A stretch of DNA of 64,000 nt from a bacterium (GCA_021836035.1 JAKBJL010000002.1:151282-215281), one strand, 5' to 3'. Positions 7,359 to 32,048 are shown, numbered from the stretch's first letter. Notes: generated by a model not told the origin, from the sequence alone. Made by a program: numbers and translations.

Positions 7359-7438
7359 TTTAATAAATTATCTAATAAAAATTTTTCCGGACCCCTTCAG
7401 TGATAATTCAGTCTTTAGGCTTATGCTCTTGGCGTAAG

Positions 7439-7468
7439 GTGCTTATCGGAAGTGCACGATAAGCACCC
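7439..7468. other. Perfect 11-bp inverted repeat ggtgcttatcg-N8-cgataagcacc
   Basis: Read directly. It lies about 20 nt past the stop of the 7488-8723 gene on the minus strand and about 85 nt upstream of the 5133-7358 start. No U-tract follows. Confidence 0.5.
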
Positions 7469-7487
7469 TACTAACCAAAAAAGATGC

Positions 7488-10502: not shown

Positions 10503-10805
10503 TCAGTAAGTAGGAAGAACCACTTGTTTTCCGGAGATTAGTTTCCCGTTAACCGGAATTTGCAGAGCAAAACCTAAGGCGTTGGCGATCGCTACCCCTA
10601 CCCGCAAACCGGTAAAAGAACCCGGGCCAGTAGCTACCTCGATTTCCGTAATATCCTGCAGGGTAAGATCCTGCATATCCAGTAGCTCTTTAATCATCGG
10701 CAAGACTACCTGCGAGCGCCAAACGGAAGAGTCTTTGACCGTTTCTTTTTCCCCAAGCCATATAATAGTTTTTTGGTTGGAAGAAGTGTCAATAAACAGT
10801 TGCAT
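10503..10805 (-). CDS. tsaB: Mini-TsaB-like protein (N-terminal domain of the tRNA t6A biosynthesis protein TsaB/YeaZ, 100 aa)
   Basis: MQLFIDTSSNQKTIIWLGEK...EIEVATGPGSFTGLRVGVAIANALGFAL carries the TsaB/Kae1-family GPGSFTGLRVG motif. Only ~100 aa against ~230 aa for canonical TsaB. Confidence 0.6.
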   Translation of the reverse strand: MQLFIDTSSNQKTIIWLGEKETVKDSSVWRSQVVLPMIKELLDMQDLTLQDITEIEVATGPGSFTGLRVGVAIANALGFALQIPVNGKLISGKQVVLPTY

Positions 10806-12808: not shown

Positions 12809-14100
12809 TTCCCAAAATTAGTAATCACTTTGGATAAATCAAAAATTGTATATGGGGTATCAAAACCTATAAGAGCAATTTTCATATCGTTTATATCTAC
12901 ATAACCGTCTCGATTAAGGTCTCCAGGAATTAAGCCTGCTCCTGCCCAGGCGTCCTGAACAGCTGAAATAATTTTGAAGTTGCTTTCAATCGCTTGGTCG
13001 TCATGGATTTGTTGGAGGGTTTTGCCGGTAAAGGAGTTTTCAATATTGGCAATGACCGTATCCAACTCCGGACCGGAAACTCCTAGTCGGGCGGGAACAT
13101 CGTTTAGGGTTAAAGTCTTTTGATTGTTGCCAAAACCTGGAATATTAACAAAATAATTGTCATCAATAATTACCTGAGGATCATAACTCGTCATCGGAGA
13201 AACCAATCGATTGGCATTGTTTGGGCCTAAAAAATTATGGCGGAAAGTAAAAACATTTTTGCCGTTGTTGGCATCCTGTGGCGGCGGCCAATATTCATTA
13301 TCTGTCGGTAACCAGAGGGCTACATTTTGCCAGCCGCCCGAGCTCCATAAGATATCATCTTGGACACTATTACCTTTGCCCTGAACAACAATACCATAGC
13401 AGACATCACCATAGAAATTATTATGGACGGTGACATAACCAGGATTGTGCCAAAGGTGGGTAGCATAGCCCCCTTCAAAACTCAGAGGCTTTCCGATGTG
13501 GATATTTTTCTCGATTAAAGCACCTTCCCCGGGTTTGGCCATCATATTATTAATATAGATTGAATGGCCCCGGTTATCATGGCCTGAGCGGATAAAACGG
13601 TTGCCGATATATTTGTTTCTCGTACTGCCTCCTTCATTAAGACCGCCAAAATAATTAAAATAGGTATTATTGACTAGCTCAACGTCATTACCGTTTTGGA
13701 TCACGTATTCTGCCGTATCCTTACTAGGCGTCCCGAACCACAAACTTTCCACCCTGGTGAAAGAATTGGTGAAAACATTCGGAGTATGGACGGCAATATC
13801 AGTAATAATTGGTCTCGCATTGATGTCAGCCTTGACAATTGATCTCACTGTGGAACCTGATGGTCCCAAAAACAGCCAACCGCGGTTGACCGTATCTACA
13901 GCGTAGATGCCGTCTTTAAGAATTAAGGTATCCCCCGGTCGCATCCGGGAATTACCGGTCAGTAAATCCCAAGGATTGGACATAGAACCATCGCCCGTTG
14001 AAGAACCGGAAGGAGAAACATAATAGTCAGCGGCAAAGGTTGGGGAAGCAAAGATGCCAAAAACAAAAATAATAGCTAAAAGGAAAAGTATTTTTTTCAT
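12805..14100 (-). CDS. Secreted right-handed beta-helix (DUF1565-like) protein with C-terminal dockerin-like module (431 aa); paralogue of 10811-12808
   Basis: MKKILFLLAIIFVFGIFASPTFAADYYVSPSGSSTGDGSMSNPWDL...PGDTLILKDGIY. C-terminal GDLNRDGYVDINDMKIALIGFDTPYTIFDLSKVITNFGK. ATGA overlap with neighbours. Confidence 0.7.
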   Translation of the reverse strand: MKKILFLLAIIFVFGIFASPTFAADYYVSPSGSSTGDGSMSNPWDLLTGNSRMRPGDTLILKDGIYAVDTVNRGWLFLGPSGSTVRSIVKADINARPIITDIAVHTPNVFTNSFTRVESLWFGTPSKDTAEYVIQNGNDVELVNNTYFNYFGGLNEGGSTRNKYIGNRFIRSGHDNRGHSIYINNMMAKPGEGALIEKNIHIGKPLSFEGGYATHLWHNPGYVTVHNNFYGDVCYGIVVQGKGNSVQDDILWSSGGWQNVALWLPTDNEYWPPPQDANNGKNVFTFRHNFLGPNNANRLVSPMTSYDPQVIIDDNYFVNIPGFGNNQKTLTLNDVPARLGVSGPELDTVIANIENSFTGKTLQQIHDDQAIESNFKIISAVQDAWAGAGLIPGDLNRDGYVDINDMKIALIGFDTPYTIFDLSKVITNFGK

Positions 14101-15494
14101 TTCCCAAAATTAGTAATCACTTTGGATAAATCAAAAATAGAATAGGGATTATTAAAATCGATTAGAACTTTTCTGATATCCATGATATCCACTTTACCGT
14201 CCTGATTCAAATCCCCGGCTAAATTAACAGTTTGAGATATAAAAGCGCCTAAATTCTTACCATCACTGCCAGCATTACTTGCCAAACTACCAGGTAATAA
14301 ACGGAAATCTCCGGCAGCGGCGTTAACAAACAGGGGATCAAAATGCATGGTATGTACCCCCAAAGTATTATTATGCTGGACAAAGTAAGGAGAAATCCCG
14401 TAATTATCAGCCGAAGTAAAATAATCGTCATAGTCGTCGGTATTATACTGAGGATAAGAGTTCATCGAACCGCCAGAATCATAGTCAAGATTATTGCTGC
14501 CATTAAAGACAAACAAATTATTTTTAACGTTATTATAGGCGGCGCCCTCACGAAAATAAAATATTCCCCGGGCGTTGCTGACCGAGGTGTTGTTGAAAAC
14601 CTGGTTGTGGTCGCCGGCGATAATAATTCCACCGGCCCCGTTGCCAAAAGTAATATTTCGTGATAATACCTGCCCGGTGGGATTGCTGTAGGAATGAATG
14701 CCGTAACCGGCATTGTTAAAAATTATATTCCCGTCCACGGTAAAATAACTGGCCGGAACGTAAATCCCGTGGTCGGTGCCCTGGGTTCCGTTTTCAAAAA
14801 CGATATTGCCCTGAATTAGGGCATTTGTTCCACCATGTCCTTCCTCCTTAATCCCACAATGGAGATGATTATAAACGACATTATTAGAAATACGATCTCC
14901 TTGGCCGGCACCATTGAAAAAGATAATACCGACATCACTGTAAGTCTCCTGTGCTGGAGCTCCGGGATATCCCCGATAACCTTCAACAACAAAACCATTG
15001 AACCATACATAGTAAGCGCTGTTCCCCTGGAGGGTAACAATCGGGCCGGCAAGGTAATTATCGGGTGGAAGTATTTTTACTTTTCCTAAGTCACCCGGTG
15101 CGGAACTGATTACCAGAGGATTACTATCACTGGTCCCACCCTTCTGGATTAAGACAGTTTGTTTATAAATTCCGGCAGTGACATAAATAATATCTCCGGC
15201 AGAAGCAACAGCAATTCCTTTATTAATAGTCGCAAAAGGTGATGTTTGAGTTCCAGAGTAATTATCGTTGCCTTTGGCTGATACCCAATAAACTTTTCCC
15301 GCTGTAGGGAAATTTAACTCCGGAACTACCGGGCGGACCAAATTCCAGGTACCACGATCATAAGAAACGGTAATTGTTCTTTGATCAGGAGAGAAGTAAA
15401 TATCAGGGGTCGAATAAGCTTCAGCTATGGGTGTTTTAATTAAAGATAGAAAGGCTGCAAGCAGGAAAACGCCATATTTTAAAATTTGTTTCAC
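14097..15494 (-). CDS. Secreted right-handed beta-helix (DUF1565-like) protein with C-terminal dockerin-like module (~465 aa from GTG start)
   Basis: PbH1-like repeats (GNIVFENG, GNIIFNNAGYGIH, NITFGNGAGG). C-terminal GDLNQDGKVDIMDIRKVLIDFNNPYSIFDLSKVITNFGK. Start placed at GTG 15492-15494 (MKQILKYGVFLLAAFLSLIKTPIAEA signal peptide, matching the paralogues). An ATG at 15545 is the alternative. The ORF-track start at 15683 would overlap tsaE by 70 nt. Confidence 0.65.
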   Translation of the reverse strand: MKQILKYGVFLLAAFLSLIKTPIAEAYSTPDIYFSPDQRTITVSYDRGTWNLVRPVVPELNFPTAGKVYWVSAKGNDNYSGTQTSPFATINKGIAVASAGDIIYVTAGIYKQTVLIQKGGTSDSNPLVISSAPGDLGKVKILPPDNYLAGPIVTLQGNSAYYVWFNGFVVEGYRGYPGAPAQETYSDVGIIFFNGAGQGDRISNNVVYNHLHCGIKEEGHGGTNALIQGNIVFENGTQGTDHGIYVPASYFTVDGNIIFNNAGYGIHSYSNPTGQVLSRNITFGNGAGGIIIAGDHNQVFNNTSVSNARGIFYFREGAAYNNVKNNLFVFNGSNNLDYDSGGSMNSYPQYNTDDYDDYFTSADNYGISPYFVQHNNTLGVHTMHFDPLFVNAAAGDFRLLPGSLASNAGSDGKNLGAFISQTVNLAGDLNQDGKVDIMDIRKVLIDFNNPYSIFDLSKVITNFGK

Positions 15495-15613
15495 GCTCAA
15501 AAATACCCGCAAAATGGCAGGTAAATACCAGCTTAAGATTAACATAAATTTGGTAAATCTAGAATGAGGGGCCCGCTTTTTTGCTTTACGAAACTGGAGA
15601 TACTGCCTGCCGA

Positions 15614-16051
15614 TTATTTCCCGATTCTGGTAATTAATATTTCTCTGGTATTTTCTCCTTCGGTTGTTATTCCAATTTCCCATCTTTTTTCGGGCAAAAA
15701 ACCCTCAATTTTTTCCGGCCACTCAATCAGGACAATATTTTTCGGATCCTGCCAAAGTTCCTCAATACCAACGGCTTTAATATCGTCGACGGAAGTCAAG
15801 CGATATAAATCCACATGCCATAAATAAGCCAATTTAACACAGCGGATAACGGATAGCAGGTAGCGTCTGGTGATAACGAATGTTGGGCTGACAAGCCGGG
15901 ATTTAATTCCTAAACCTTCCGCAACCCCCTGAACAAAAGTAGTTTTACCGACGCCCAGATCACCGTAAAGAGCCACTACTCCTCCGCTTTTAATCTTTCT
16001 GGCAAATTCACTCCCCAATTTCCGGGTTTCCCTGGCCGAGCTGGTTACCAT
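15614..16051 (-). CDS. tsaE: tRNA threonylcarbamoyladenosine biosynthesis ATPase TsaE (YjeE)
   Basis: P-loop GDLGVGKTTFVQG, then SPTF and HVDLYRL motifs typical of TsaE. Confidence 0.8.
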   Translation of the reverse strand: MVTSSARETRKLGSEFARKIKSGGVVALYGDLGVGKTTFVQGVAEGLGIKSRLVSPTFVITRRYLLSVIRCVKLAYLWHVDLYRLTSVDDIKAVGIEELWQDPKNIVLIEWPEKIEGFLPEKRWEIGITTEGENTREILITRIGK

Positions 16052-20858: not shown

Positions 20859-21491
20859 TCAGAGCCGGGAATCTATTTCCTTGGAGAACTCATTGAGGGT
20901 CAGGCCACCGGTAAAGCGTGTCCCGTTAATAAAGAAAGTGGGAGTAGCCGAAATTCCTGCTTTATTTCCGTCCGCCTGATCAGCAAGAACCCGTTGCCTT
21001 ACGGCGTCAGAGTCCAAATCTTTATTAAACTTTTCCGTATTCAAACCCAAGTCTTTAGCGTAAGTTTTCAGGTCGTCCATAGATAACGCCGGGGATTTCT
21101 CAAAAAGTAAATTATGCATCTCCCAGAATTTTCCCTGGAGAGCGGCCGCTTCCGCGGCTTCCGCGGCGGCAAAAGCGTCCGTATGCTGCGGCAGAGGGAA
21201 ATGGCGATAAACAAAGCGAATTTTGTCTTTATATTTAGCCAATATCTGTTCTACCGTCGGTTCGGCCTCTTTACAAGCCGGGCATTCAAAATCGGAAAAC
21301 TCCACCACCGTGACTTTTGCATCCTGCGGCCCTAAGGTGTGGCTGTCAGAGCGCACAAGCACCTCAGCAGCTACCGGCTGATCCGGAGTAGCCGGCGGCT
21401 GGGAACCGCCGCCGGAAAACAGAGTCGCTCCTAAAACAATTAAAAAAGTCGCGGCAATAATGCCAATCGCCAACTTAATTTCTGAATTCAT
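20859..21491 (-). CDS. DsbA-family thiol:disulfide oxidoreductase, membrane-anchored
   Basis: CPAC active site inside a thioredoxin fold; N-terminal TM LAIGIIAATFLIVLGATLF. Start moved to the internal Met (MNSEIK) to avoid a long overlap with the ATPase gene. Confidence 0.7.
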   Translation of the reverse strand: MNSEIKLAIGIIAATFLIVLGATLFSGGGSQPPATPDQPVAAEVLVRSDSHTLGPQDAKVTVVEFSDFECPACKEAEPTVEQILAKYKDKIRFVYRHFPLPQHTDAFAAAEAAEAAALQGKFWEMHNLLFEKSPALSMDDLKTYAKDLGLNTEKFNKDLDSDAVRQRVLADQADGNKAGISATPTFFINGTRFTGGLTLNEFSKEIDSRL

Positions 21492-23937
21492 ACTGTTGAT
21501 TATACAACCTGTTTGCCGGTCGGACAAAAGGTTGTTCCGGTCTTTTCTTGCCGACCTGACCGTAATAAGCAATCTTAAAAATATCCAAAACAAAAAGATA
21601 GATAGCGGTTATAGCGACAATCAGCGCTAAAAGTCGGAAATCCAGCGCGGTAAAATGGAAAACGGCAGCAAAGGGCAGATACGGCAACAGTAAAACAAAA
21701 AGGCAAACCAATAAAGTTGCCGCGGTCAGCACCATCCCCGGCGGCAGCCCCCGGAACATGCTGCCCCTGCGGCGGACGGAAAATATCACTACCAAATTGG
21801 TTAAAGTCAGCAAAACAAACCAGGCGGTTCTTAGCGTTTCGATCGGAAGCGGGTGCAAATAAAAATAGAAGGATAAATTTAAAAGGGTCGTCACCCCGCC
21901 AAGGAGCAGGGGTAAAAGCAAAAGGTCGGCAAGACGATGCTTAGCCGGCCGGTGTAGTTCCTCGTGGTCTACATTATCACTGGCAACCGCCAGCTGCGGT
22001 AAATCGGAAAGCAATCCGGTCAAAATCAGCTGGACAGGTAAGAGCGGCAAAAAATCCGTGACCAGCGAAATAATCGCCACCGCAAAAAAATTGCCCCAAT
22101 TGGATACCATGGTATGCTTTATATACTTATCAATATTGGCAAAAATCCGGCGACCCGATTCAATCCCGTCAATGACCACTTTTAAATCCGGTTTGAGAAG
22201 CAGAATATCCGCCGCTTCCGTAGCGACTTCTGCCGCCCCGCTGACGGCAATACCGACATGAGCCGCTTTCAGAGCCGGGGCATCATTAATTCCGTCACCA
22301 AGGTAACCGACAACATAGCAGCTCTTCAGGGTTTCGATAATCTTATATTTTTGCTCGGGCATAATCCGGGCAAAAACCAATCCTTCCCGGCAAGCCCGGG
22401 TAAATTCCTCTGCGGACATTTTTTCCAAATCCGGGCCGGTAAAACAAAGGTCGTTTTTGTCCAATAAACCCACGTTCACAGCGGCATGACGGGCAACTCC
22501 CAAACTGTCGCCGGAAATAATTTTTACCTGGACAGCCAGTTTCCGGGCCAGGGAAATCGCATTTTGGGCCGTAGGTCTTAGGGGGTCATCGAGACTGAAA
22601 TAGCCCAGATATTCCAGACCGCCGTCATCAAATTGGTTTTCCAGAGTAAAGCTGTTGCTGACCTTTTTATATGCTACTACTAAATGCCGTAAGCCCTCCT
22701 GTTCTTCGCGGTCAATTTTATTTATCCAGATACTTTTCCCGTCATCGGTACATTGCCGGAATACTTCCGCCGGAGATCCCATGACAACCAAAACCCGCTG
22801 TTTGCCGTCGCCAATCAAGGCATAACGCCGCCGTAAGCGCGGATCAAAAGGCAAATAAGCTATAAGCTTCAGGTTTTTGTTCCGGGATACTAGATCCGCC
22901 GGGATTTTTCTTCTCAGAGCGGTATCAATAGTATCTCCCTGCTCCAAACAAAAATAAGAATAAGCAAATAATTTAGCCAAAGTTTTGGATACCGCTTCTT
23001 TGACCGTCAGCATATTCTGGGTAATGGTTCCCGTTTTGTCGGTGCAGAGGACCTCAATGTTCCCTAAGTCTTCTACCGCGGAAAGCCTTTTTACCACCAC
23101 ATGTTCCCGGGCCAGCTTTAACGCCCCGGCCGAAAGAGTCAGAGTCGATATCGCCGGCAAAGCCTCCGGGACTACGGAAATAGCCAGCGCCAGGGTAAAG
23201 AGAAAAACGTTCAGTATGGTAGCCACGCTTACACCCCTGATCCCCAGATGCAGACCGAAAACAAGGGTCAGGGCGATAACGGTTACCAGCATCAAAAAAT
23301 TGCTTAACTGGGCAATATTTTCTTCGTACTGACTTTTTTTCCGGAGAGCCGTACTTAACCCGGCGATTTTACCCAAGCGCGTCTGCATGCCCGTAGCCGT
23401 TACTTCCATTTCCGCATAGCCATGAAGCACCGTCGTTCCCATAAACGCCCGATCGCCTTTGGCTTTGTCTGCCGGGAAGGTCTCGCCGGTCAAGAGCGAC
23501 TCATCAATGGCTAAACCCTCACTGAACTTAATCTCCCCGTCAGCCGGAGCAATATCTCCCTCTTCTAAAATCACGCTATCTCCCGGGACGATTTCCGCTT
23601 CGGGAATTTTTACCACCCGGTTATCCCGCCGGACCGTCGCGGTCTTTTTAATTAGGTTATGCAGCTTTTCGATAAACTTTTCGCTTTTATACTCCTGATA
23701 AAAACTCAGGACGGTATTAACCAGAAGGATTACGGTGATGGTCAGGCCGTCGGCAGGTCCGGAGAGGAAGAAGGAAATAAGAGCTGCCAAAATTAAAAAA
23801 TATACCAACGGGCTTCTGATCTGCTTTCCCAAAGTCCGCCAAATGGAAAGCCGGTAGCCGGTAATAAGGTTGGCGCCATTTTGCTTTAACCGGTCGGCGG
23901 CTTCAGCCGAAGTTAATCCGGGCAGTTGCTGTACCAT
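21475..23937 (-). CDS. Cation-transporting P-type ATPase (type II/III, Mg2+/Ca2+-like)
   Basis: Phosphorylation motif CTDKTGTITQN, hinge GDGINDAPALKAAHVGIAV, TGES-like segment, about 10 TM. Confidence 0.8.
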   Translation of the reverse strand: MVQQLPGLTSAEAADRLKQNGANLITGYRLSIWRTLGKQIRSPLVYFLILAALISFFLSGPADGLTITVILLVNTVLSFYQEYKSEKFIEKLHNLIKKTATVRRDNRVVKIPEAEIVPGDSVILEEGDIAPADGEIKFSEGLAIDESLLTGETFPADKAKGDRAFMGTTVLHGYAEMEVTATGMQTRLGKIAGLSTALRKKSQYEENIAQLSNFLMLVTVIALTLVFGLHLGIRGVSVATILNVFLFTLALAISVVPEALPAISTLTLSAGALKLAREHVVVKRLSAVEDLGNIEVLCTDKTGTITQNMLTVKEAVSKTLAKLFAYSYFCLEQGDTIDTALRRKIPADLVSRNKNLKLIAYLPFDPRLRRRYALIGDGKQRVLVVMGSPAEVFRQCTDDGKSIWINKIDREEQEGLRHLVVAYKKVSNSFTLENQFDDGGLEYLGYFSLDDPLRPTAQNAISLARKLAVQVKIISGDSLGVARHAAVNVGLLDKNDLCFTGPDLEKMSAEEFTRACREGLVFARIMPEQKYKIIETLKSCYVVGYLGDGINDAPALKAAHVGIAVSGAAEVATEAADILLLKPDLKVVIDGIESGRRIFANIDKYIKHTMVSNWGNFFAVAIISLVTDFLPLLPVQLILTGLLSDLPQLAVASDNVDHEELHRPAKHRLADLLLLPLLLGGVTTLLNLSFYFYLHPLPIETLRTAWFVLLTLTNLVVIFSVRRRGSMFRGLPPGMVLTAATLLVCLFVLLLPYLPFAAVFHFTALDFRLLALIVAITAIYLFVLDIFKIAYYGQVGKKRPEQPFVRPANRLYNQQYEFRN

Positions 23938-23949
23938 GATGCGCGAAAA

Positions 23950-24588
23950 TTAAAAAAAGGCTACGGATATCGTCCCCAAAGAGGCTCCCAGAAAGACCCC
24001 GCCAAAGACATCAGAAGTCCAGTGTTCTCCCAAATAGATCCGGCTGACGGCCATGATAAAGGCCGTGAGGATGGCCAAAGCCAAAGCTGCTGTTTTTTGC
24101 TGGCGGTTGCCCAGATAGCGCCAGGCCAAAAAAACTCCGACTACCAGGAGGTATATTGTCCGGCTGACATGGCCCGAAGGGAAACTATAATCCGTCCGCA
24201 CATAAGCTGTGGGAAAAACAAAAGGCAGATTATAGCGGAAAAAAATCGATGGCGGGCCGGGATGGAAAACAAACAATTTACCGATAATTTCAAAAACGAA
24301 AATAAAACCGAAGAGAAGCAGCGCCAAGGGAAGCTTTTTTGTCCGCTGATAAAGTAACCAGGCAAAAAAAAGCAGGATCAGGCTCGTTACCTCTGAACTA
24401 CCAAGCAACGAAAAAAAGGAAAGGGGAATATCCAAAAAGCGGGGGATCAGCCGCTGGACATATTCCGTAATTATAGGATCGATCACGGTGAAATAACGCT
24501 GGATCTCGAGGAACATCAGAAGTAAAAACCCGGCAAACAGTACCCCACCCTTACCCAAAACCACCCGTTTCCCTTTTTTCCATCTCAT
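23950..24588 (-). CDS. PAP2-family membrane phosphatase (undecaprenyl-diphosphatase/BcrC-like)
   Basis: PAP2 motifs SFPSGH and SRIYLGEHWTSD. Confidence 0.7.
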   Translation of the reverse strand: MRWKKGKRVVLGKGGVLFAGFLLLMFLEIQRYFTVIDPIITEYVQRLIPRFLDIPLSFFSLLGSSEVTSLILLFFAWLLYQRTKKLPLALLLFGFIFVFEIIGKLFVFHPGPPSIFFRYNLPFVFPTAYVRTDYSFPSGHVSRTIYLLVVGVFLAWRYLGNRQQKTAALALAILTAFIMAVSRIYLGEHWTSDVFGGVFLGASLGTISVAFF

Positions 24589-25091: not shown

Positions 25092-26564
25092 TCAAAAGCT
25101 TTCGGGAATGTCATAGCGCAATCTGTAAACGCGCAGGTCAATACCATTGGCAAATTTTTTCTCCTTCAGCATTTGATAATGGGTATCCAGATAGTTGCGG
25201 ATCCGCGATTCGTAACCCTGGTCATAAGACAAAACGAGAAATAACCGGGCGTACTCCGTTTTGTAACTATTCAGCTGGTCGGTTAATCCCGCTAGGGTAA
25301 AAGGGGGAATCGGCCCCTGGACATAACGGTCCCAGTTGGGAATGGTATCGATGCGGGCATGGCCGGTATAAGCATACTCGAGAGGATAAACGGTAAATGG
25401 GGCGCTGACGGCAATAATGTCGCCCGGAGTAGCGTTTTGGGAAAGATAATTAGCCACCCCCCGATAGTTTTCTTCCGCCGGCGTAGAGGAGGTGAAGTCC
25501 TGGTAAAGCAGCAGGCCAACCATAATCACCAGTAAACCGACAATGAGAAAACGCGCCATCCGTCCGCTGAATCCGCTCAGCGACCAGGCAATAAGAAAAA
25601 ATAGGGTCGGGAGAACAAAGATAAGATAGCGTGAAAGATAAACCGGGCGGATAAAAGAAGCCATAAAAACCAGGATAATCGGGGCAAATGTGATCAGAAA
25701 AAAATAATCGATATCCCGTCCGGCAATTTTACCGCCCCGGGTAAAAGTAAAAAAAAGGAAAATAACTAAAAGCGGCCAGAGGGAAACCAGAACTCCTTCA
25801 ATCGTTCGGTTTTGAAAACCGAAAAGAAAATCGCTAAAAGTCTGAAACAGGTTATAAGCGGAAGGCCGGGCAAGTACCGGTTGTGAGCTGGCCGCCAAAC
25901 CATGACTTAAAAAATAGATCGCCCAAGGTAAAAAAATTAAAAAGGGCGGCGTCAGCAAAGCTAGAAACAAGAGGATAAAGCGTTTCTGGGCTAGGCATTT
26001 GAAAAATATATAGACGGTTTGGACAAAAACGACCAGGAGAAAGAAGTAATGCGTATATAAACCCAGGGTGGTTGCCAACAGATAGCCCACTTTCCCCTGT
26101 CCGCCCCGGGAACGGAAAACGCGTAAAAAATATATATTACTCCAGGTAGTAGCCAGAGTAAAAAGCATATACATCCGCGTTTCGCTGCTATACCAGAGGG
26201 CAAAAGGCGAGAGGGCAAAAAGCACTGTGGTCAGATAGGCAACGCTGTACCCGGCCGCTTCTTTCGCCAGAACGAAAATAAACGGCAGGGTCAATAAAAA
26301 AAAGGCCAGGGAAAGCGTGCGGGCAAAAACAATATCCGTACCGAAAACCTGGACCCAAAAGTGTAATAGGAGGTTATAAAGCGGCGGATGGACATCCTGA
26401 GACATTAAATAAAAGATATCCCCGGCCGATTTAGTGGCCACCCAAATCGATTGAGACTCGTCCAGGCGGACCGATTGGGTATAAAGAGAAAAAGCGCTAA
26501 AAAGCACTGAAGCCATAATTAAAAGCACCATCCAAACCGGCAAAGAAAATATTTTTCTAGACAC
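25092..26564 (-). CDS. GT-C fold glycosyltransferase of the PMT_2/GT39/ArnT-like family (multi-TM)
   Basis: N-terminal RLDESQSIWVATKSAGDIFYLMSQDVHPPLYN (DE...HPPLY loop motif) and at least 10 TM segments. Confidence 0.65.
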   Translation of the reverse strand: MSRKIFSLPVWMVLLIMASVLFSAFSLYTQSVRLDESQSIWVATKSAGDIFYLMSQDVHPPLYNLLLHFWVQVFGTDIVFARTLSLAFFLLTLPFIFVLAKEAAGYSVAYLTTVLFALSPFALWYSSETRMYMLFTLATTWSNIYFLRVFRSRGGQGKVGYLLATTLGLYTHYFFLLVVFVQTVYIFFKCLAQKRFILLFLALLTPPFLIFLPWAIYFLSHGLAASSQPVLARPSAYNLFQTFSDFLFGFQNRTIEGVLVSLWPLLVIFLFFTFTRGGKIAGRDIDYFFLITFAPIILVFMASFIRPVYLSRYLIFVLPTLFFLIAWSLSGFSGRMARFLIVGLLVIMVGLLLYQDFTSSTPAEENYRGVANYLSQNATPGDIIAVSAPFTVYPLEYAYTGHARIDTIPNWDRYVQGPIPPFTLAGLTDQLNSYKTEYARLFLVLSYDQGYESRIRNYLDTHYQMLKEKKFANGIDLRVYRLRYDIPESF

Positions 26565-28038
26565 GGTTCTCTCCTTTCATGGCAGCATTAATAAAGGGTA
26601 CAAAGGTAATAATATTAAAAATTTCCCAGGCGACGTTGGTGGCGACCGACGGGTCAATGCCTTCCCGCATAATACCAACCGCCGCCGCGGCCGCGGAGAG
26701 AAATATATAAAAAAGGTGGGGATAAGCTAAGAAGAGAAAATTCCCCCGCTGGGCAGTTTTAGGCGTGACCGTAAAAGCTTTCGCCTCCCGAAAAAGCGCG
26801 GATTTCAAAGCGGAAAGCTGCAGGAACCAACTGCTGTGGGTAAAAGAGATTGCCCGGAAAGTCAAGCTGCCGCGCGAAGCAACACTTAAAGTATACAGAT
26901 TCAAAAACATGAAAGGCACAAAAAAAACGGCAAAATTCGTCGTCGAAGAAACTACCGGCTGGATGCCGGTGAATAAAAAAGCCAGCGGCATGATCATATC
27001 AGCCAAAACAATCAAGCCGTTAAGGTAGAAAAGAGAAGAAGCCAGATATTGGATTTTTTGCGGGAGCAAAAGACCCTTTTTAAAAAGAGGGTTATTATAA
27101 ATTAAAACTCCGAGGTTGCCGTGAGCCCAGCGGATCTGCTGTTTGTAATAGGAAAGCAAATCCTCCGGCCCCAAACCGGCGGATAATACGTCAGTTAAGT
27201 AATAAGATTGCCAGCCCTTGGCGTGAATTAACAAGGAGGTCAGAAAGTCTTCCGCAATATTTTCCTCCTGCATACCGCCGACTTCGAGCAGTGCTTTCCG
27301 CCTGATCGTCACATTGGTACCGCAAATAAATGCCGCATTGACGCTGTCTTTCCCTTCCATCACCGGACCGAAAAAAAATTCCTGCTGTTCCCAAGCTCCC
27401 CCGGCGACGTTACTGTCCGCCGCATTGCGGTAAAACTGAGGAGTTTGTACAAAACCAACCTGTGGGTTTTTAAAATAGGGAACGGTCCTCTTTAAAAAAC
27501 TTTTCTTGGGCGCCATATCCGCATCAAAAATAGCCACTAATTCTCCATCGGTTTGCTGCAGCGCATCGTTGATGTTTCCCGCTTTAGCTCCGTGAGCAAT
27601 CTTCCGGGTAAAACAACGGATATGCATTTCCTGCGCCATGGTTTCGATCTCCTGCCAATTTTCTTTTTTAGCCACATAACCGTCATTTAAAATAAACACC
27701 TGGTGATGGGGATAATCCAGGTTTTTTGCCGCCAGCGCCGTTTGCGCGACAATCTCCAGCGGTTCTCCGGCTACCGGGATAAAAACATCGACTGTCGGAT
27801 AAAAACTGCTGGCAGTGACAAAATCCGGGTGCCGCTTTTTCTGCGGCCAGACGGTGTACCAAAAGGACAAAGCCATCAGTAAATGATAAACTTCTCCGGC
27901 AAAAAGCAAGCCGAAAAGATAAGGATTGCCGATCTTGCCGGGAGCCAGCCACCAGGAAAAATAAACCGCCGCCACCAGAATATTCACCAACAGTAAACTG
28001 CGGGAAACTTGCTGTAAATTGATTGCTTCCTCTGGCAT
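26557..28038 (-). CDS. Processive family-2 glycosyltransferase, cellulose/chitin-synthase-like, without a PilZ domain
   Basis: VAIFDADMAP (DxD), QTPQFY, ICGTNVTIRRKAL, QQIRWAHG (QxxRW), flanked by TM helices. Start moved to the internal Met to avoid overlap with the GH8 gene. Confidence 0.7.
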   Translation of the reverse strand: MPEEAINLQQVSRSLLLVNILVAAVYFSWWLAPGKIGNPYLFGLLFAGEVYHLLMALSFWYTVWPQKKRHPDFVTASSFYPTVDVFIPVAGEPLEIVAQTALAAKNLDYPHHQVFILNDGYVAKKENWQEIETMAQEMHIRCFTRKIAHGAKAGNINDALQQTDGELVAIFDADMAPKKSFLKRTVPYFKNPQVGFVQTPQFYRNAADSNVAGGAWEQQEFFFGPVMEGKDSVNAAFICGTNVTIRRKALLEVGGMQEENIAEDFLTSLLIHAKGWQSYYLTDVLSAGLGPEDLLSYYKQQIRWAHGNLGVLIYNNPLFKKGLLLPQKIQYLASSLFYLNGLIVLADMIMPLAFLFTGIQPVVSSTTNFAVFFVPFMFLNLYTLSVASRGSLTFRAISFTHSSWFLQLSALKSALFREAKAFTVTPKTAQRGNFLFLAYPHLFYIFLSAAAAAVGIMREGIDPSVATNVAWEIFNIITFVPFINAAMKGENRV

Positions 28039-28043
28039 ATGAC

Positions 28044-29225
28044 TCAGTAATGATCCAGCGCTTTCGCATACAGAGCCGCTCCGAACCAAAGCCAATTCTG
28101 ATCATAATAAGGTAGTTCGGAATTAAAACTATTGGTATCGTTGGAATAAAGCCGCACTATTTTTTCATCATAAATTCTTTTAGCCAGAAGGGGATGGACG
28201 GCAAGGAAATAACCTATCGCCGTCGCATACATGGCCGGGCTCTCATGGCCGTTGAGAACCGTTCCGTCATGCGCGTAGGAAGTCGCCAATTTTCCGTTAT
28301 GATTAAAGTCGGAAAGCAATCTGCCGAAATTATTCTGCAGATAAGATAGGGCCTGCGGCTCGTGATTCCACTCCCAATCCAAAGCGATCCGCCAGGGAAT
28401 GCGCATAGCATCAAAGGAGTAATTGGTCGTGAGACTTGGGATATCCGGCGCCCGGGGTTTGCCGGTAGTGCGGTCGACAACTATCCAGTCCGGCGGCAAG
28501 CCCGCGGAGACAGATTTGTCCAGAGGGTCCCGGCTGACTTCTTCTAAAAGACCATATGCCGGTCCGATTAAATCGTTCCAGCGGTGCTCCGGTTTTTTAT
28601 CCGTCTGAGCAAAAATTCTCCAGGCGTAAGGGGCGAAATAAGAAGGGTTGATAACTACCTCCTTATCGTTTTGCGCCCAATTACCTGCTGTCACATAAAA
28701 ATTCCCCGAAACCGTAGCGACCTCCTTGCCCCAAATATCACCCAAAATATTTTGGGCGTCCCGGTCGTAAGTAGTCACGTGCCAACGCCGGTCCGCCAGG
28801 ATTAAGGCAAGAGCAATATCGGTATCCGCATCGCTGGCGCTGTTATTCCCCCCTCCCGAGAGAAAACCGAAACTACCGTCCGGCTTCTTTCCCCACCGCC
28901 AGCCGAACAAATAATCTCCCGGCCGTTTTAAATTTTCCCTGGTCCATTTCCAGATCTGGTCAAATGCCTGCTTATCGTCTACCCATACCGCCCGTAATAA
29001 AGCATAGCTTTGCCCTTCGGAAGTTGTCAGCGAATTATTGCCATAATCAATAACCCGTCCGTCACCGTTAATAAATTGCCTTTTATATTTTTCCCAGGAG
29101 GAAGTTAACAGCGTATAATTCGAAAACGGACGGGTCACTCCGTTATATCCGTTGTTGATGTACAAAACGGAAATAAAGATAATGATACCGATAATAATGG
29201 CGGTATAGCCGAGATATTGGCGCAT
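28044..29225 (-). CDS. Glycoside hydrolase family 8 endoglucanase-like (BcsZ-like)
   Basis: N-terminal TM anchor and the GH8 signature TSEGQSYALLRAVWV. Confidence 0.65.
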   Translation of the reverse strand: MRQYLGYTAIIIGIIIFISVLYINNGYNGVTRPFSNYTLLTSSWEKYKRQFINGDGRVIDYGNNSLTTSEGQSYALLRAVWVDDKQAFDQIWKWTRENLKRPGDYLFGWRWGKKPDGSFGFLSGGGNNSASDADTDIALALILADRRWHVTTYDRDAQNILGDIWGKEVATVSGNFYVTAGNWAQNDKEVVINPSYFAPYAWRIFAQTDKKPEHRWNDLIGPAYGLLEEVSRDPLDKSVSAGLPPDWIVVDRTTGKPRAPDIPSLTTNYSFDAMRIPWRIALDWEWNHEPQALSYLQNNFGRLLSDFNHNGKLATSYAHDGTVLNGHESPAMYATAIGYFLAVHPLLAKRIYDEKIVRLYSNDTNSFNSELPYYDQNWLWFGAALYAKALDHY

Positions 29226-29229
29226 CTTT

Positions 29230-29781
29230 TCAGGTAAAAGTCTGGTTATTTTCTACACTCCCGTTTTCCGGTTTAATTAATATCAGGCCGATAAAGACGG
29301 AAACAGCGGCAATTCCCAAAAGCAAGTAAGTAAAAAGCGTTGGCAATTTGCTGCTTTGGTAGAACTGCTGGGGAACGGCATGTGATAAAAGTACGGCCGG
29401 CGGCTTTAAGAATTCCGGTAAAGGCAGTCTATTAATTCGACGTACCAAGGGATTTTCCACTGCGATCGGGGAAATAGCGGGTGTGGGCACCGGGGTAAGG
29501 AGAATCGCAGAACCGGTAGCAATTAAAGTCGGACTGGGGGTAGCGGAAATTTCCGGGGAGATACCCGGAGTTGCGGAAGGCGAAGAGACAGCCGGAGTCG
29601 GAGTTACCGTTGCCGAAGGGGTAGCCGTAAAAGGAGCCGGCGGAAAGATTGTAACGATCCCGGAGGGGGTAGCATTATCGTCCTGAGAAAGCCGGAGAAA
29701 CCGGACGGCAACAGCTCTCTGCGCTCCCGCAAACAACAAGCCGCCCAGAATAGCCACGATAAAAATAGTTTTCCTGACCAT
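29230..29781 (-). CDS. Hypothetical bitopic membrane protein with PT-rich region (183 aa)
   Basis: Signal/TM at the N-terminus, TATPSATVTPTPAVSSPSATPGISPEISATPSPT, and a C-terminal TM. Confidence 0.45.
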   Translation of the reverse strand: MVRKTIFIVAILGGLLFAGAQRAVAVRFLRLSQDDNATPSGIVTIFPPAPFTATPSATVTPTPAVSSPSATPGISPEISATPSPTLIATGSAILLTPVPTPAISPIAVENPLVRRINRLPLPEFLKPPAVLLSHAVPQQFYQSSKLPTLFTYLLLGIAAVSVFIGLILIKPENGSVENNQTFT

Positions 29782-29929
29782 AATCCGCAGATGACTTTAG
29801 GCTGAATTTCCATAAGATCTTTTTTCCATTCTCTCATAGACGTGATTCGTGTCAAGTACATTTGCCCGGTCTTGCCCGATTCTTACCCTATTAATACGGA
29901 TCACTGCCAAGCCCTGAACCCGGGGGATC

Positions 29930-29959
29930 TTGACAAAATTTACGACCCCGTGTTAGTAT
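29930..29959 (+). promoter_or_regulatory. Near-consensus sigma70-type promoter: TTGACA, 18-nt spacer, TGtTAGTAT (extended -10)
   Basis: TTGACA at 29930-29935 and TAGTAT at 29954-29959, preceded by TG. The predicted TSS is around 29966, just upstream of the GH5 reading frame. Confidence 0.55.
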
Positions 29960-30020
29960 CCGCTCTCTGTCGATAAAACTAAGACTGGTCAGCCTTGTTT
30001 TTGCAGCTCTATTCCTCGGG

Positions 30021-32048
30021 ATGGCTTTCTTTCCTTTTAAAACCCGGGCGGCTGATCCTCCGGCGGTAGTTTTTGCCAACGCCCTTTCCGCCGGTTGGAC
30101 TAATTGGTCCTGGGGGAGCAATGTCGATTTCGGCAATGTCATTACTTTCACACCCGGTCCCTGGGGCGGTCTTTATCTCCATACCGATAATTCTTTAGAT
30201 CCCGCCGATTTCGCCAGCTTAGATTTCAGCCTGAAAGCTACCCGGGACAACCAAAATTTTCGCGTGATTGTTTATAACGCGGACAATCAGGCAATCGGCA
30301 GCAGTACCATCCCGGATGGTGCCCCTCTTTCCGTAGATAACTGGCGGGATTACAGTATTCCCCTGCAAAACCTCGATCCCGATAAAAAGCCCGTTAAGGG
30401 TATAGCCATTCAGGAAATTTCCGGCCAAGCCCAACCCGCTATCTATTTCAATAAAATCCAATTTGCGGCCGCCCCTTCAGGGGGTAATTCCGCGTTAAAC
30501 ATTTTTAATAGTGCTCTGGCTTCCGGTTGGACCAGCTGGTCCTGGGATTCGCAAATAAATTTCGGTCCGGTAATTGCTTATCAGTCTTTCCACCAATGGT
30601 CCGGCATTTACCTGCATAACGAAACCGGAGTTAATCTTCAAAGCTACAGCTACCTGCACTTTTCCGCTAAGGCCGGAAAACCCGGTCAAAAATTTGCCGC
30701 CATAATCTACGACGCCAATAATTCTCCAGCCGGTAATTCCCTGCCTTTAACCAACTACGGCGGTGATCCCGGAGCAGATAACTGGCAGGATTATCAAATT
30801 CCGTTGAGCGATCTGGGCGCCACGGGTAAAACGATAAAAGGAGTTGCGCTCCAGGATATCGGTCCGGTCCAGGACACTCTTTACCTTAATGATTTGGCCT
30901 TCACTTCCCTTCCCCTAACGGATAATCAGCAGGCTGCCGCTAATATTTCCGTCACTCCGACGCCTCAGCCCGCCCCCCCTACCAGTCTTACGGATAGCGG
31001 AGGATTTAATACGGGCAACGGAGCGATTTACCGAAACGGCCAAAAAATTAATCTGCACGGTATTAACTGGTTCGGTTTTGAAACCGATGCCCATGTCGTC
31101 CATGGGCTCTGGGCAAGAAACTATAAAGATATTATTTCCCAAATTAAAAACCTGGGCTTCAACGCCGTCCGCCTGCCTTTTTGCCCTGCCAGTATCCAAG
31201 GTGCGTCTACTTCTTCGATCGATTTCGTGAAAAATCCCGACCTTAACGGGCTGAACAGTCTGCAGGTTTTGGATAAGATCGTGACGGAAATGGACAATCA
31301 GGGTCTTTTTACGCTTCTGGATTCCCACCGGCCCGACTGCAACACCCAATCGGAACTTTGGTATACCGATACATATCCGGAATCACAATGGATTAACGAT
31401 TTAAAAACCCTGGCCGGACGGTTTGCCAATCTAACTAACTTCCTGGGCCTGGATCTGAAAAACGAACCTCATGGAGCAGCAACCTGGGGAACCGGCAATA
31501 TAAGCACGGATTGGAACCTGGCAGCGGAACGCGCCGGCAGCACCGTACTCTCGGTTAATCCCCATATTCTCTTATTTGTCGAAGGAATTGGTGATAATCC
31601 CAACTGCCAGGATAATAACGCCCATTTTTGGGGCGGTAATCTCGCCCCCGTTAAATGTAAAGGTTTAAATTTACCCGGGAACAAAGTGGTTTACTCACCG
31701 CATGTTTACGGTCCCGACGTCTCCTGGCAATCATATTTCGGCGAGAGCGGTTTCCCTAATAACATGCCGGCGATCTGGGATGCCCAATGGGGATATCTTG
31801 CCGGCAGTTATGCGTTAGCTCCCGGGGAATGGGGCGGGAAATACGGCAATAACGGCGGCAACCCGCTGGATGTTACCTGGCAGAATGCCTTTGTCGGTTA
31901 CCTAATAAACAAAAAGATCTGCAGTTCTTTCTATTGGGACTTAAATCCTAACTCCGGCGATACCGGCGGAGTTCTCCAAGACGACTGGACTACCCCCTGG
32001 AGCGATAAACTCTCCCTGCTCCAAAACTATTTCAACTCCTGCCAATAA
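30021..32048 (+). CDS. Secreted GH5 endoglucanase (cellulase family) with two tandem N-terminal ~150-aa CBM-like beta-sandwich modules. The true start is probably upstream at a non-ATG codon
   Basis: GH5 motifs NLHGINWFGFE, acid/base NEPH, nucleophile PGEWGG. Two repeats beginning ALSAGWTNWSWGSNVDFGN and ALASGWTSWSWDSQINFGP. The frame is open back to 29934. The in-frame ATA (29973) or CTG (29967/29985) would give MKLRLVSLVFAALFLGMAFFPFKTRAA-DPP, a good signal peptide. Confidence 0.7.
   Translation: MAFFPFKTRAADPPAVVFANALSAGWTNWSWGSNVDFGNVITFTPGPWGGLYLHTDNSLDPADFASLDFSLKATRDNQNFRVIVYNADNQAIGSSTIPDGAPLSVDNWRDYSIPLQNLDPDKKPVKGIAIQEISGQAQPAIYFNKIQFAAAPSGGNSALNIFNSALASGWTSWSWDSQINFGPVIAYQSFHQWSGIYLHNETGVNLQSYSYLHFSAKAGKPGQKFAAIIYDANNSPAGNSLPLTNYGGDPGADNWQDYQIPLSDLGATGKTIKGVALQDIGPVQDTLYLNDLAFTSLPLTDNQQAAANISVTPTPQPAPPTSLTDSGGFNTGNGAIYRNGQKINLHGINWFGFETDAHVVHGLWARNYKDIISQIKNLGFNAVRLPFCPASIQGASTSSIDFVKNPDLNGLNSLQVLDKIVTEMDNQGLFTLLDSHRPDCNTQSELWYTDTYPESQWINDLKTLAGRFANLTNFLGLDLKNEPHGAATWGTGNISTDWNLAAERAGSTVLSVNPHILLFVEGIGDNPNCQDNNAHFWGGNLAPVKCKGLNLPGNKVVYSPHVYGPDVSWQSYFGESGFPNNMPAIWDAQWGYLAGSYALAPGEWGGKYGNNGGNPLDVTWQNAFVGYLINKKICSSFYWDLNPNSGDTGGVLQDDWTTPWSDKLSLLQNYFNSCQ

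Follow-up and report, generated by a model that had tools for sequence, protein, structure and literature searches.

What could a tiny-genome bacterium of the CPR/Patescibacteria make with a compact group of genes that looks like a cellulose operon without BcsB, BcsC and PilZ? Such was the original prediction for this locus, which lies in a stretch of 64,000 nucleotides (the window) and was said to encode a GT-C, a GT2, a GH8 and a GH5. All four are present among the window ORFs, at the positions given below. The prediction had counted three co-oriented genes, overlooking a fourth operon ORF; the minus-strand operon comprises genes for a Pro/Thr/Ser-rich (PTS-rich) anchor protein, the GH8, a BcsA-like GT2 and the GT-C, and the GH5 gene is transcribed divergently on the plus strand.

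25092..26531, minus strand: glycosyltransferase of GT-C fold (PMT_2) with ArnT-like architecture, 479 aa as called
26557..28038, minus strand: BcsA-like processive GT2 synthase-translocase without PilZ, 493 aa in the source record
28044..29225, minus strand: BcsZ-like GH8 endoglucanase (PF01270), its N-terminus a membrane anchor or signal
29230..29781, minus strand: 183-aa Pro/Thr/Ser-rich protein, C-terminally anchored; first operon gene, 4 nt upstream of GH8
29782..30020, no strand: divergent intergenic region between the two transcription units (operon and GH5)
30021..32048, plus strand: GH5_1-like endo-beta-1,4-glucanase (PF00150) with two N-terminal CBM8-like modules
30060..30470, plus strand: CBM8-like module 1 (GH5 residues ~14-150)
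30489..30908, plus strand: CBM8-like module 2, then a Pro/Thr linker (GH5 residues ~157-296)

Within the operon, gaps of 4-5 nt separate the PTS ORF, GH8 and GT2, and overlaps of -4 nt are found in other loci, so that translation of GH8 and synthase is coupled. No PilZ, GGDEF or BcsB domain was detected in any scanned ORF of the window, which within these 64 kb agrees with the predicted absence of c-di-GMP control and of BcsB, and no conserved BcsB-sized neighbour was found among 80 related loci.

The system had been viewed as an unexpected oddity of a reduced genome. Instead, the window holds the local copy of a cassette that is conserved in different classes of Patescibacteria. The search patterns were matched by at least 429 species-level genomes. 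We inspected the 80 related Patescibacteria loci with the best scores (81 where the window's own locus is counted): GH8, GT2 and GT-C are co-oriented in 78, the remaining two being cut by contig ends. The four-gene cassette seems not to have been described previously. Nor is the GT-C just another gene, as had been assumed; it is in fact an obligate partner of the synthase, which changes the mechanistic picture. GT2::GT-C fusions form three separate protein clusters, two of them in independent assemblies, and a single contig carries one GT-C::GH6 fusion. The fusion locus L086/L087 has no adjacent GH8.

The longest ORF of the GT2 spans 26557-28095 on the minus strand, with the start probably at 28038, giving 493 aa. 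The protein matches the CelA model TIGR03030 (E 3e-100; 336.3 bits, below the NCBIfam equivalog cutoff of 699.1 bits) over model positions 59-564 of 714, the PilZ part being absent; the match to NF008558 (234.5 bits) is likewise below its cutoff (992). In profile searches against PDB, BcsA was matched by 7lby (E 4e-80) and 4hg6 (E 1e-75), with the HMM alignment covering the TM region of both structures. Residues D119, D172xD174, E263-D264 and Q300xxR303W304 are invariant in 15 homologues and align with the D, DxD, TED and QxxRW motifs of E. coli BcsA; the gating-loop motif F422xV424T425xK427 (FxVTxK) is also invariant in the homologue alignment. The AF2 model (pLDDT 87.2) contains six TM helices together with interface helices, and its TM-scores (TMq) are 0.86 and 0.85 to BcsA, 0.5-0.6 to hyaluronan synthase and ~0.4 to chitin synthase. 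In this model the chain stops ~6 residues past the last TM helix, and the homologues are all ~500 aa long. Having no PilZ domain, the GT2 is predicted to lack BcsA-type gating by c-di-GMP. The linkage of the polymer cannot be read from homology to BcsA, since curdlan and mixed-linkage synthases are BcsA-like too; we infer a beta-1,4-glucan product in the context of the BcsZ-like GH8 and of the GH5_1, GH6, CBM8 and CBM2 neighbours.

The GH8 matches PF01270 (E 4e-51, 174 bits, cutoff 24 bits) and the BcsZ model of NCBIfam (E 2e-46; 158.7 bits, under the 299-bit equivalog cutoff), and its best sequence matches in PDB are BcsZ-type glucanases (7f81, 5czl, 1wzz and 3qxf). The catalytic acidic residues E70 (the Glu of the TSEGQS motif), D132 and D272 are kept in 99, 99 and 93% of 71 cassette GH8s, respectively.

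The divergent GH5 matches PF00150 over residues 347-645 (E 5e-39, 134.8 bits) and has the catalytic motifs NEP (LKNEPHG) and GEW (GEWGG). Its matches in PDB include 4tuf (Xanthomonas EngXCA, E 1.5e-132), P. horikoshii EGPh and Acidothermus E1, all of which we take to be GH5_1 enzymes. The two tandem CBM-like modules that had been predicted are indeed present and CBM8-like, with 40% mutual identity (E 5e-34); module 1 aligns over its whole length (residues 5-133) with 7t7y (E 1.6e-8), the CBM8 module DdCBM8, for which a W-x-W, an aromatic and a Q are listed as binding residues (PMC9079177). By sequence alignment, the putative ligand positions of module 1 correspond to those of 7t7y as WSW to WSW and IQE to IQD. 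The enzyme had been called a secreted GH5; the family assignment stands, but translation from the called ATG yields no signal peptide. Reading in frame from an ATA further upstream, at 29973, gives MKLRLVSLVFAALFLGMAFFPFKTRA followed by ADPP, and would add one. The GH5 gene probably has its actual 5' end in the intergenic region, which probably also holds both promoters; promoter-like sites scoring 10/12 lie at 29855-29828 (minus strand) and 29930-29959 (plus strand), the number of such sites across the region being not above that in shuffled controls. Taken together, the family calls of the original prediction hold (a PilZ-less processive BcsA-like GT2, a BcsZ-like GH8, a GH5 with tandem CBMs and a GT-C), and none of the contrary outcomes, namely a non-processive GT2, a missing TM pore or other families for the GH8 and GH5, was found.

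In 36 of the 81 loci, the cassette has a GH5, GH6 or GH113 gene in its vicinity, in varying position and on either strand, and GH6, GH113 and CBM2 occur among the neighbours in other loci. The GH5 varies between lineages and is an accessory outside the core of the cassette. These hydrolases could be aimed at foreign cellulose instead of the cassette's own product. On a foraging reading, GH8, GH5, GH6 and GH113 would digest environmental or host beta-glycans as food, GT2 and GT-C would make an unrelated envelope glycan, and their adjacency would reflect a shared 'carbohydrate island'. A GH5_1 with cellulose-type CBMs, GH6 and CBM2 do resemble classical secreted cellulases, and the scattered placement of the accessory enzymes agrees with such a role. 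However, the GH8 is coupled to the synthase and accompanies it in the 78 loci, as BcsZ does in cellulose operons, and in the GT-C::GH6 fusion the partner of the synthase carries a cellulase domain, so we regard foraging as highly improbable.

The GT-C has an alternative start, a GTG at 26564, that would give 490 aa (ORF 25092-26564). PMT_2 (PF13231) is its sole Pfam match (E 1e-6, 29.6 bits, cutoff 26.1 bits), and no sequence match was found in PDB, even with a profile. Its AF2 model (pLDDT 87.9) shows a GT-C fold with a C-terminal extracytoplasmic alpha/beta domain, for which Foldseek ranks ArnT (5ezm) first (E 8e-8, TM 0.63, 14% identity), followed by ALG9/ALG12, STT3/PglB, Pmt4 and AftD. 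The RLDE motif that follows TM1 shows no variation in sets of 60 and 41 homologues (L23-D24-E25 being invariant), and R, H and RY positions are also conserved. The invariant DE motif, these conserved positions and the fold argue for a catalytically intact GT-C, an enzyme rather than a mere scaffold. The earlier label 'PMT/GT39-like' agrees with the fold, the DE motif and the PMT_2 match, but membership in GT39/PMT is not demonstrated: Pfam gave no MIR match, the 479-aa protein has no large lumenal loop, and ArnT is the closest structure.

A possible supply of lipid-linked sugar is encoded in some loci. A GT2 resembling polyprenyl-phosphate-sugar synthases (GtrB/ArnC/PgfS-like) is found nearby in 25 of the 81 loci and is fused into the cassette in L039, L054, L056, L068 and L082. 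Genes for a GtrA-family flippase (PF04138) were found in 9 loci as well as in L082, and L039 has one in fused form; fusions of GT2, GtrA and nucleotidyltransferase were found inside the cassette. This frequent co-location and occasional fusion suggest that a lipid-sugar donor is consumed. In the window, tblastn detected neither GtrB-like nor GtrA genes, which would suit a GT-C that mainly replaces BcsB, stabilising the channel and guiding the chain, or that joins the glycan to an acceptor (lipid or cell wall), with plain cellulose as the polymer. The missing BcsB in the scanned window ORFs, the obligate GT2/GT-C pairing and the existence of fusions fit this reading as well. BcsA-type synthases require a TM partner, BcsB or GlxA; the TM anchor of BcsB alone is enough for BcsA activity, and that of GlxA partners CslA (PMC11022532). 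Nevertheless, the invariant DE motif and the other conserved polar residues favour retained catalysis, and the GtrB-like and GtrA genes imply donor use, so that a mainly structural or anchoring GT-C appears quite improbable.

The 183-aa protein has no match in Pfam or NCBIfam. It consists of an N-terminal signal peptide or TM segment, a low-complexity region and a conserved C-terminal anchor module of the form '[FY]Y..T..-TM helix'. An equivalent co-oriented gene lies directly upstream of GH8 in ~50 related loci, with 25-48% P/T/S; this composition is kept across lineages as the sequence drifts, and in some cassettes the upstream gene is short and only weakly PTS-rich. An HMM of the anchor module, trained on C-termini of Microgenomates-type loci, recovers, at E<0.03, 14 of the 20 upstream genes kept out of training; the few additional matches belong to the cassette as well. 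The same module is fused to the GtrB-like GT2 in L054, L056, L068 and L082.

Such a protein suits a target of PMT- or Pgf-type protein O-glycosylation just as well as a subunit of the glycan machinery. In that case the GT-C would be a PMT/Pgf-type enzyme acting on the adjacent PTS-rich membrane protein, and perhaps on the PT linkers of secreted glucanases, with synthase and GH8 making an unmodified glucan linked to the GT-C only via that glycoprotein. The sole Pfam match of the GT-C and its DE motif, which is common to PMTs, are compatible with this, as are the presence of Pmt4 among its structural matches and the P/T/S richness that survives sequence drift, typical of O-glycosylated linkers. 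In addition, the best NCBIfam match of the small cassette GT2 is PgfS, a component of surface-protein glycosylation in Streptococcus mutans. Fusions to a cellulose-type synthase (in three clusters) and to a GH6 cellulase would, however, be surprising for an enzyme that glycosylates proteins. The GT-C, lacking MIR, is nearer in architecture to ArnT than to PMT, and its only NCBIfam match is the mannosyltransferase model MT1671, which we take to represent the M. tuberculosis Rv1635c enzyme that modifies a glycan (lipoarabinomannan). The short, weakly PTS-rich upstream genes of some cassettes also count against this reading. On this evidence, we consider protein O-glycosylation unlikely.

We regard it as moderately probable that the cassette encodes a c-di-GMP-independent, BcsB-less beta-1,4-glucan synthase-translocase, physically coupled to a GT-C that acts on the emerging glycan from a lipid-linked sugar, with the GH8 trimming the product and GH5, GH6 and GH113 as variable accessories. 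The GT2 would polymerise a beta-1,4-glucan-type chain from a cytoplasmic UDP-sugar and thread it through its own six-helix channel. The GT-C, lying against the synthase (and part of the same polypeptide in some lineages), would use a polyprenyl-phosphate-sugar donor to glycosylate or otherwise process the chain at the outer face, where the membrane-anchored GH8 may trim or free chains as BcsZ does. The small PTS-rich single-pass protein may be an accessory membrane subunit that tethers the lipid-sugar synthase, provides a BcsB-like TM anchor, or both, and the divergent GH5_1-2xCBM8 would be a secreted, lineage-variable remodelling glucanase. To the established family assignments, intact catalytic motifs, conserved gene order and fusions, this scheme adds what we infer: the beta-1,4-glucan product, the glycan as acceptor of the GT-C, the identity of the donor sugar, and a role of the polymer as surface coat or attachment matrix. 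A role in attachment to a host or partner, as originally suggested, is pure speculation. More tentatively, Patescibacteria may possess an unrecognised class of synthase-dependent exopolysaccharide machine, in which a BcsA-type synthase-translocase is hard-wired to a GT-C (at times within a single polypeptide) and the polymer is branched or derivatised from a polyprenyl-phosphate-sugar on leaving the channel. If so, the 'synthase-dependent' and 'three-component Gtr' pathways would be merged in one machine, and the decorated beta-glucan would serve these epibionts as cell coat or host-attachment matrix.

The closest known system is the Bcs core (BcsA-BcsB with BcsZ, types I-III; 4hg6, 4p00, 7lby, 9b8v), which shares the GT2 catalytic domain with its D, DxD, TED and QxxRW motifs, a channel that corresponds to TM3-8, with interface helices and an FxVTxK gating loop (28% identity, TM-score 0.85-0.86), as well as an operonic BcsZ-type GH8. 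Unlike BcsA, the cassette GT2 has only two TM helices before the GT domain and ends just after the last TM helix, without PilZ. BcsB, BcsC and the other Bcs subunits are absent, and the obligate GT-C and the PTS-rich anchor protein are added; we know of no bcs operon type with either. The GT-C fold, the acidic DE motif after TM1 and the PMT_2 match are shared with ArnT (GT83) and PMT (GT39), and the C-terminal extracytoplasmic domain with ArnT, but identity is only 11-16% and the genomic partner is different; in comparison with PMT, the MIR domain is lacking, and ArnT, ALG9 and ALG12 all outrank Pmt4 in Foldseek.

In the Streptomyces apical glucan system CslA-GlxA-CslZ(-LpmP), the synthase is accompanied by a secreted endoglucanase, CslZ, which is a GH6; GH6 also adjoins or is fused into CPR cassettes. 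This system likewise has a Gram-positive-type, BcsB-less cellulose-type synthase that relies on an unrelated partner anchored in the membrane (PMC11022532). That partner is a radical copper oxidase rather than a GT-C, CslA retains a partial PilZ and is c-di-GMP-responsive (PMC11022532), and neither a GH8 nor a lipid-sugar pathway is present.

Many cassettes contain the same trio of polyprenyl-phosphate-sugar synthase-like GT2, GtrA-family flippase and GT-C as the GtrA/GtrB/GtrX (O-antigen) and CsbB/YfhO-type systems and the GT136 pentofuranose system (PMC11127046), and the shared logic would be modification after polymerisation at the outer face. Those three-component systems, however, decorate lipid-linked polymers exported by Wzx/Wzy or ABC transporters, or teichoic acids, whereas the cassette GT-C is tied or fused to a synthase-dependent exporter of the BcsA type, and the window differs from them in having no GtrB-like or GtrA gene. 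A synthase-bound modifying enzyme has its precedent in E. coli BcsG, which has an alkaline-phosphatase-type fold, carries out pEtN rather than sugar chemistry with a donor derived from a membrane lipid, and is not a GT-C. BcsA has been captured in complex with this lipid-donor-dependent pEtN transferase (title of PDB 9fmz). Although BcsG and the cassette GT-C are not homologous, BcsG-BcsA (9fmz, 9b8v) likewise places a membrane enzyme on the synthase to modify nascent glucan at the outer face, as we propose for the GT-C.

The original prediction described a GT-C transferase, a GT2, a GH8 and a divergent GH5 as a stripped-down β-glucan module. All of these ORFs are present with strong family matches, and a fourth operon gene, overlooked there, encodes a small protein rich in Pro, Thr and Ser (PTS-rich). 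The five genes are as follows:

25092–26564, minus strand: GT-C transferase with a PMT_2 Pfam match (479 aa, start 26531, in the source-record annotation)
26557–28095, minus strand: GT2 matching five GT2 and cellulose-synthase Pfam models (493 aa, start 28038, in the source-record annotation)
28044–29225, minus strand: GH8 hydrolase (Pfam GH8, E 4e-51)
29230–29781, minus strand: 183-aa PTS-rich protein, 4 nt upstream of the GH8 gene
30021–32048, plus strand: GH5 hydrolase (Pfam GH5, E 5e-39)

The ORFs are long, match their families strongly and have hundreds of homologues, so chance can be set aside. The nearest named relatives of the window proteins belong to Levybacteria, Microgenomates and other Patescibacteria, and the GT2 family, with proteins of about 500 aa, has more than 1,800 database relatives and was matched in at least 429 species-level genomes. 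We counted conservation over the 80 best-scoring related loci, which come from Levy-, Davies-, Blackburn-, Shapiro-, Dojka- and Doudnabacteria, Saccharibacteria and many Parcubacteria/Paceibacteria groups, and accessory genes over 81, the window's own locus included. Of the 80 loci, 78 have GH8, GT2 and GT-C on one strand within 5 kb, in the order GH8>GT2>GT-C in 71 and GH8>GT-C>GT2 in 7; in the other two, the contig ends exactly where the absent gene is expected. The original observation is confirmed and its interpretation upheld in part, but the cassette is lineage-wide and not an oddity of one genome. Many TPA_asm MAGs that carry it (loci L003, L005, L009 and others) are titled 'uncultured Gammaproteobacteria' or 'Pseudomonadales' and one short cassette-bearing contig 'Verrucomicrobiia'; these records are probably mislabelled or misbinned.

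After the operon, at 21475–24588 (minus strand), lie genes for a P-type cation ATPase and a PAP2 (undecaprenyl-diphosphatase-like) protein. A P-type ATPase also adjoins the cassette in loci L082, L016, L029 and L032 and PAP2 in about five loci; with recurrence in only about 4–5 loci, neither was accepted as a cassette member, and the association is weak and may be coincidental. A downstream 107-aa ORF was likewise rejected, as it recurs near the cassette in 0 loci.

The NCBIfam CelA model matches the GT2 with E 3e-100 over model positions 59–564 of 714 only, so the PilZ region is missing. In the PDB, a 15-sequence GT2 profile matched BcsA of E. coli (7lby, E 4e-80, chain residues 202–701) and of R. 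sphaeroides (4hg6, E 1e-75, chain residues 63–579), and the D, DxD, TED, QxxRW and FxVTxK motifs are among the invariant residues. The AlphaFold model (pLDDT 87.2, pTM 0.87) is laid out as two TM helices, a GT-A domain, an interface helix, two TM helices, a second interface helix, a gating loop and two further TM helices, and fits BcsA with TM-scores of 0.86 and 0.85, compared with 0.72–0.78 for plant CesA, 0.5–0.6 for hyaluronan synthases and about 0.4 for chitin synthases. By these matches, motifs, layout and scores, the GT2 is a BcsA-like synthase-translocase without PilZ; the original call of a processive GT2 holds, and the pore helices whose absence would have spoken against it are present in the model. 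On NCBIfam bit scores (CelA 336, PgaC 74, NodC 45, MdoH 28), together with TM-scores of 0.4–0.6 as against 0.86, chitin, hyaluronan, PNAG, OPG and NodC-type synthases were rejected.

No PilZ, GGDEF or BcsB domain was detected in any scanned ORF of the 64-kb window, and neither Rfam nor tRNA models matched anywhere in it, giving no sign of a riboswitch or RNA regulator of the operon. Gaps of 4, 5 and 25 nt lie between the four operon genes; if the GT-C gene started at its GTG, it would overlap the GT2 gene by 8 nt instead. The 239-bp divergent spacer holds one good promoter-like site per strand; the promoter and terminator scan showed no excess over shuffles, and the two intergenic sites are suggestive only.

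Among PDB sequence matches, the nearest to the GH8 are BcsZ-type enzymes (7f81, 5czl, 1wzz, 3qxf), and its catalytic Glu and Asp are retained among 71 cassette homologues. The catalytic domain of the GH5 is closest to Xanthomonas EngXCA (4tuf, E 1.5e-132), then to P. horikoshii EGPh and Acidothermus E1, all of them GH5_1 endo-β-1,4-glucanases. Its two N-terminal modules share 40% identity, and over their full length they match CBM8 structure 7t7y, from Dictyostelium (E 1.6e-8); the WxW and Gln ligand-binding positions of that structure align with them. As called from the ATG at 30021, the GH5 lacks a signal peptide. In-frame codons ATA 29973, CTG 29967 or ATC 29955 lie upstream (29955–30021, plus strand), the sequence from ATA 29973 reads MKLRLVSLVFAALFLGMAFFPFKTRA|ADPP, a textbook signal peptide, and GH5 homologues have a signal peptide at the equivalent position. 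The true start is probably upstream of 30021, through either a non-canonical start codon or an assembly base error (ATG read as ATA).

In 36 of the 81 loci a GH5, GH6 or GH113 gene, often carrying CBM2, PA14 or other modules, is found near the cassette, with no fixed position or strand; in contrast to the conserved GH8, GT2 and GT-C, the GH5 is a variable neighbour. The hydrolases may be read as foraging enzymes, a view to be set against the glucanase fusion described below. Some loci (L021:13141–14751, L024, L025 and L019) have a second, longer GH8 paralogue of 524–540 aa, placed on the opposite strand right after the GT-C gene or upstream of the cassette. Locus L085 (2265–9911) has a single operon of GH6, GH8, a GT2::GT-C fusion and GH113, with two NTP_transferase (sugar-1-P nucleotidyltransferase-like) genes upstream. 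GH113 is a β-mannanase family, so some lineages may make a heteropolymer of gluco-/manno-type.

The GT-C had been described as GT39/PMT-like. Its PMT_2 match stands, and its structure model (pLDDT 87.9) has a GT-C fold, with ArnT (5ezm, TM 0.63) at the top of the fold search, followed by ALG9/ALG12, STT3/PglB, Pmt4 and AftD, all of them only 11–16% identical. Searches of the PDB by sequence, with a single query and with a profile, returned nothing meaningful, so 'GT39' is only an annotation label. The RLDE motif right after TM1 is invariant, and R71, H161 and R301-Y302 are conserved. A GT-C profile search of 1.84 billion representative proteins yielded three separate clusters of GT2::GT-C fusions of 995–1005 aa (representatives P0253, P0272 and P0281), whose N-terminal halves share 45–47% identity with the window GT2 along its entire length and whose C-terminal halves are the GT-C. 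Independent assemblies exist for each of P0253 and P0281, while P0272 comes from one contig only. The fusion topology is consistent: the six-TM synthase terminates in the cytoplasm, where the GT-Cs start. In P0289, from a single contig, a GT-C::GH6 fusion directly follows a BcsA-like gene. These fusions argue that synthase, GT-C and glucanase would form one working assembly at the glucan exit, and the GT-C is the predicted partner of the synthase. Within that partnership it may be chiefly a BcsB substitute or an anchoring transferase, although its catalytic motif is invariant.

The 183-aa protein consists of an N-terminal signal or TM segment, a PTS-rich region and a C-terminal '[FY]Y..T..' motif with a TM helix. 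In about 50 related loci, GH8 is directly preceded by an equivalent gene that is tightly coupled to it and has a product with 25–48% P/T/S. An HMM of this anchor, built from the C-termini of upstream genes in Microgenomates-type loci and run against 1,387 ORFs, detects 14 of the 20 upstream genes held out from training, which come from Parcubacteria- and Saccharibacteria-type loci (E<0.03), and nearly all its other matches also fall within the cassette. With such a protein encoded alongside, the GT-C may O-glycosylate it, like PMT- or Pgf-type systems. Over this, a BcsB-substituting role and foraging hydrolases, we favour a GT-C that would modify the emerging glucan, in view of the fusions and the invariant catalytic motif.

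In loci L054, L056, L068 and L082, a GtrB-like GT2, distinct from the BcsA-like synthase, is fused to a TM-PTS-anchor module, which ties the window's 183-aa protein to a lipid-sugar synthase. GtrB-like GT2s of roughly 250 aa occur near the cassette in 25 of 81 loci; their best NCBIfam matches, all below curated cutoffs, are the polyprenyl-phosphate-sugar synthases PgfS, ArnC, AglJ, dolichyl-phosphate hexose transferase and PpgS. A GtrA-family protein (a flippase family) is near the cassette in 9 of 81 loci. In L039, a GT2, GtrA-TM and nucleotidyltransferase fusion sits between GH8 and GT-C, and L082 has the full set together: the GT2–anchor fusion, GH8, a GT2::GT-C fusion and a nucleotidyltransferase, with GtrA adjoining. 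Neither GtrB-like nor GtrA genes were found within the 64-kb window. A PF01467 cytidylyl/adenylyl-transferase-like domain lies in the cassette at L039:6911–8488 (fused to GT2 and GtrA) and L082:8995–9474 (as its own gene); its best NCBIfam matches are RfaE domain II (heptose-1-P adenylyltransferase) and TagD, which may hint at an activated sugar or group supplied to the GT-C.

Elsewhere in the window, three large minus-strand genes in series (10811–15683) encode a 665-aa protein with a Laminin_G_3/ConA-like lectin domain, a 431-aa protein without a Pfam match and a 528-aa right-handed β-helix protein (NosD, Beta_helix, DUF1565); they may form another secreted carbohydrate-binding or carbohydrate-active cluster. 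A 258-aa sortase gene, which implies a Gram-positive-type wall-anchoring system, adjoins the gene for a 752-aa protein with a weak Baseplate_J-like match (56971–60032, minus strand; E 1e-5). A 209-aa protein (62708–63337, minus strand) with an N-terminal HTH_25 and a C-terminal 'Glucodextranase domain B'-like domain (E 1e-11) presumably resembles RodZ-like architectures. A 100-aa ORF (10503–10805, minus strand) matching TsaD model positions 30–84 only (E 8.5e-16) is a fragment or else a truncated gene of TsaB/TsaD-like type; TsaE is at 15614–16051. ORFs of 741, 411, 206 and 170 aa (5133–8723 and 9291–10420, both minus strand) have no Pfam match, typical of CPR 'dark' protein content.

Lineage-wide and apparently undescribed, the cassette is best seen as a variant of synthase-dependent glucan export to which a GT-C is coupled. 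In the proposed mechanism, a BcsA-type enzyme, constitutive or otherwise regulated, would make and export a β-1,4-glucan-type chain; the bound GT-C would modify or process the emerging chain from polyprenyl-phosphate-sugar, and GH8 would trim it. The anchor protein would tether the lipid-sugar synthase, supply a BcsB-like TM partner, or both, and secreted GH5, GH6 and GH113 enzymes would remodel the product.

CPR/Patescibacteria account for much of bacterial diversity, and many of them rely on other cells; to our knowledge, their surface chemistry is almost unknown. A conserved, easily recognised cassette predicts a specific surface polymer, and its genes are defined targets for heterologous expression and for work on the few Saccharibacteria that can be cultivated. 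Cellulose research gains from it a natural minimal synthase of about 490 aa without PilZ or BcsB, natural synthase::GT-C fusions fit for structural work and possibly a new way of modifying glucan during export. In glycobiology, it would extend lipid-sugar/GT-C decoration from lipid-linked to synthase-dependent polymers.

In the open-access literature we found no paper linking cellulose synthase to Patescibacteria, CPR, Saccharibacteria, Microgenomates or Parcubacteria, nor any tying BcsA or cellulose synthase to a GT-C partner, an absence that is not proof of novelty. Each single element of the proposed mechanism has a precedent. The BcsB TM anchor alone supports BcsA activity, and CslA is partnered by GlxA in Streptomyces (PMC11022532); BcsG, while bound to BcsA, modifies cellulose, according to the title of PDB entry 9fmz; and polymers are decorated on the outer side of the membrane by three-component systems of the Gtr type (PMC11127046). 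The combination of these elements appears to be new.
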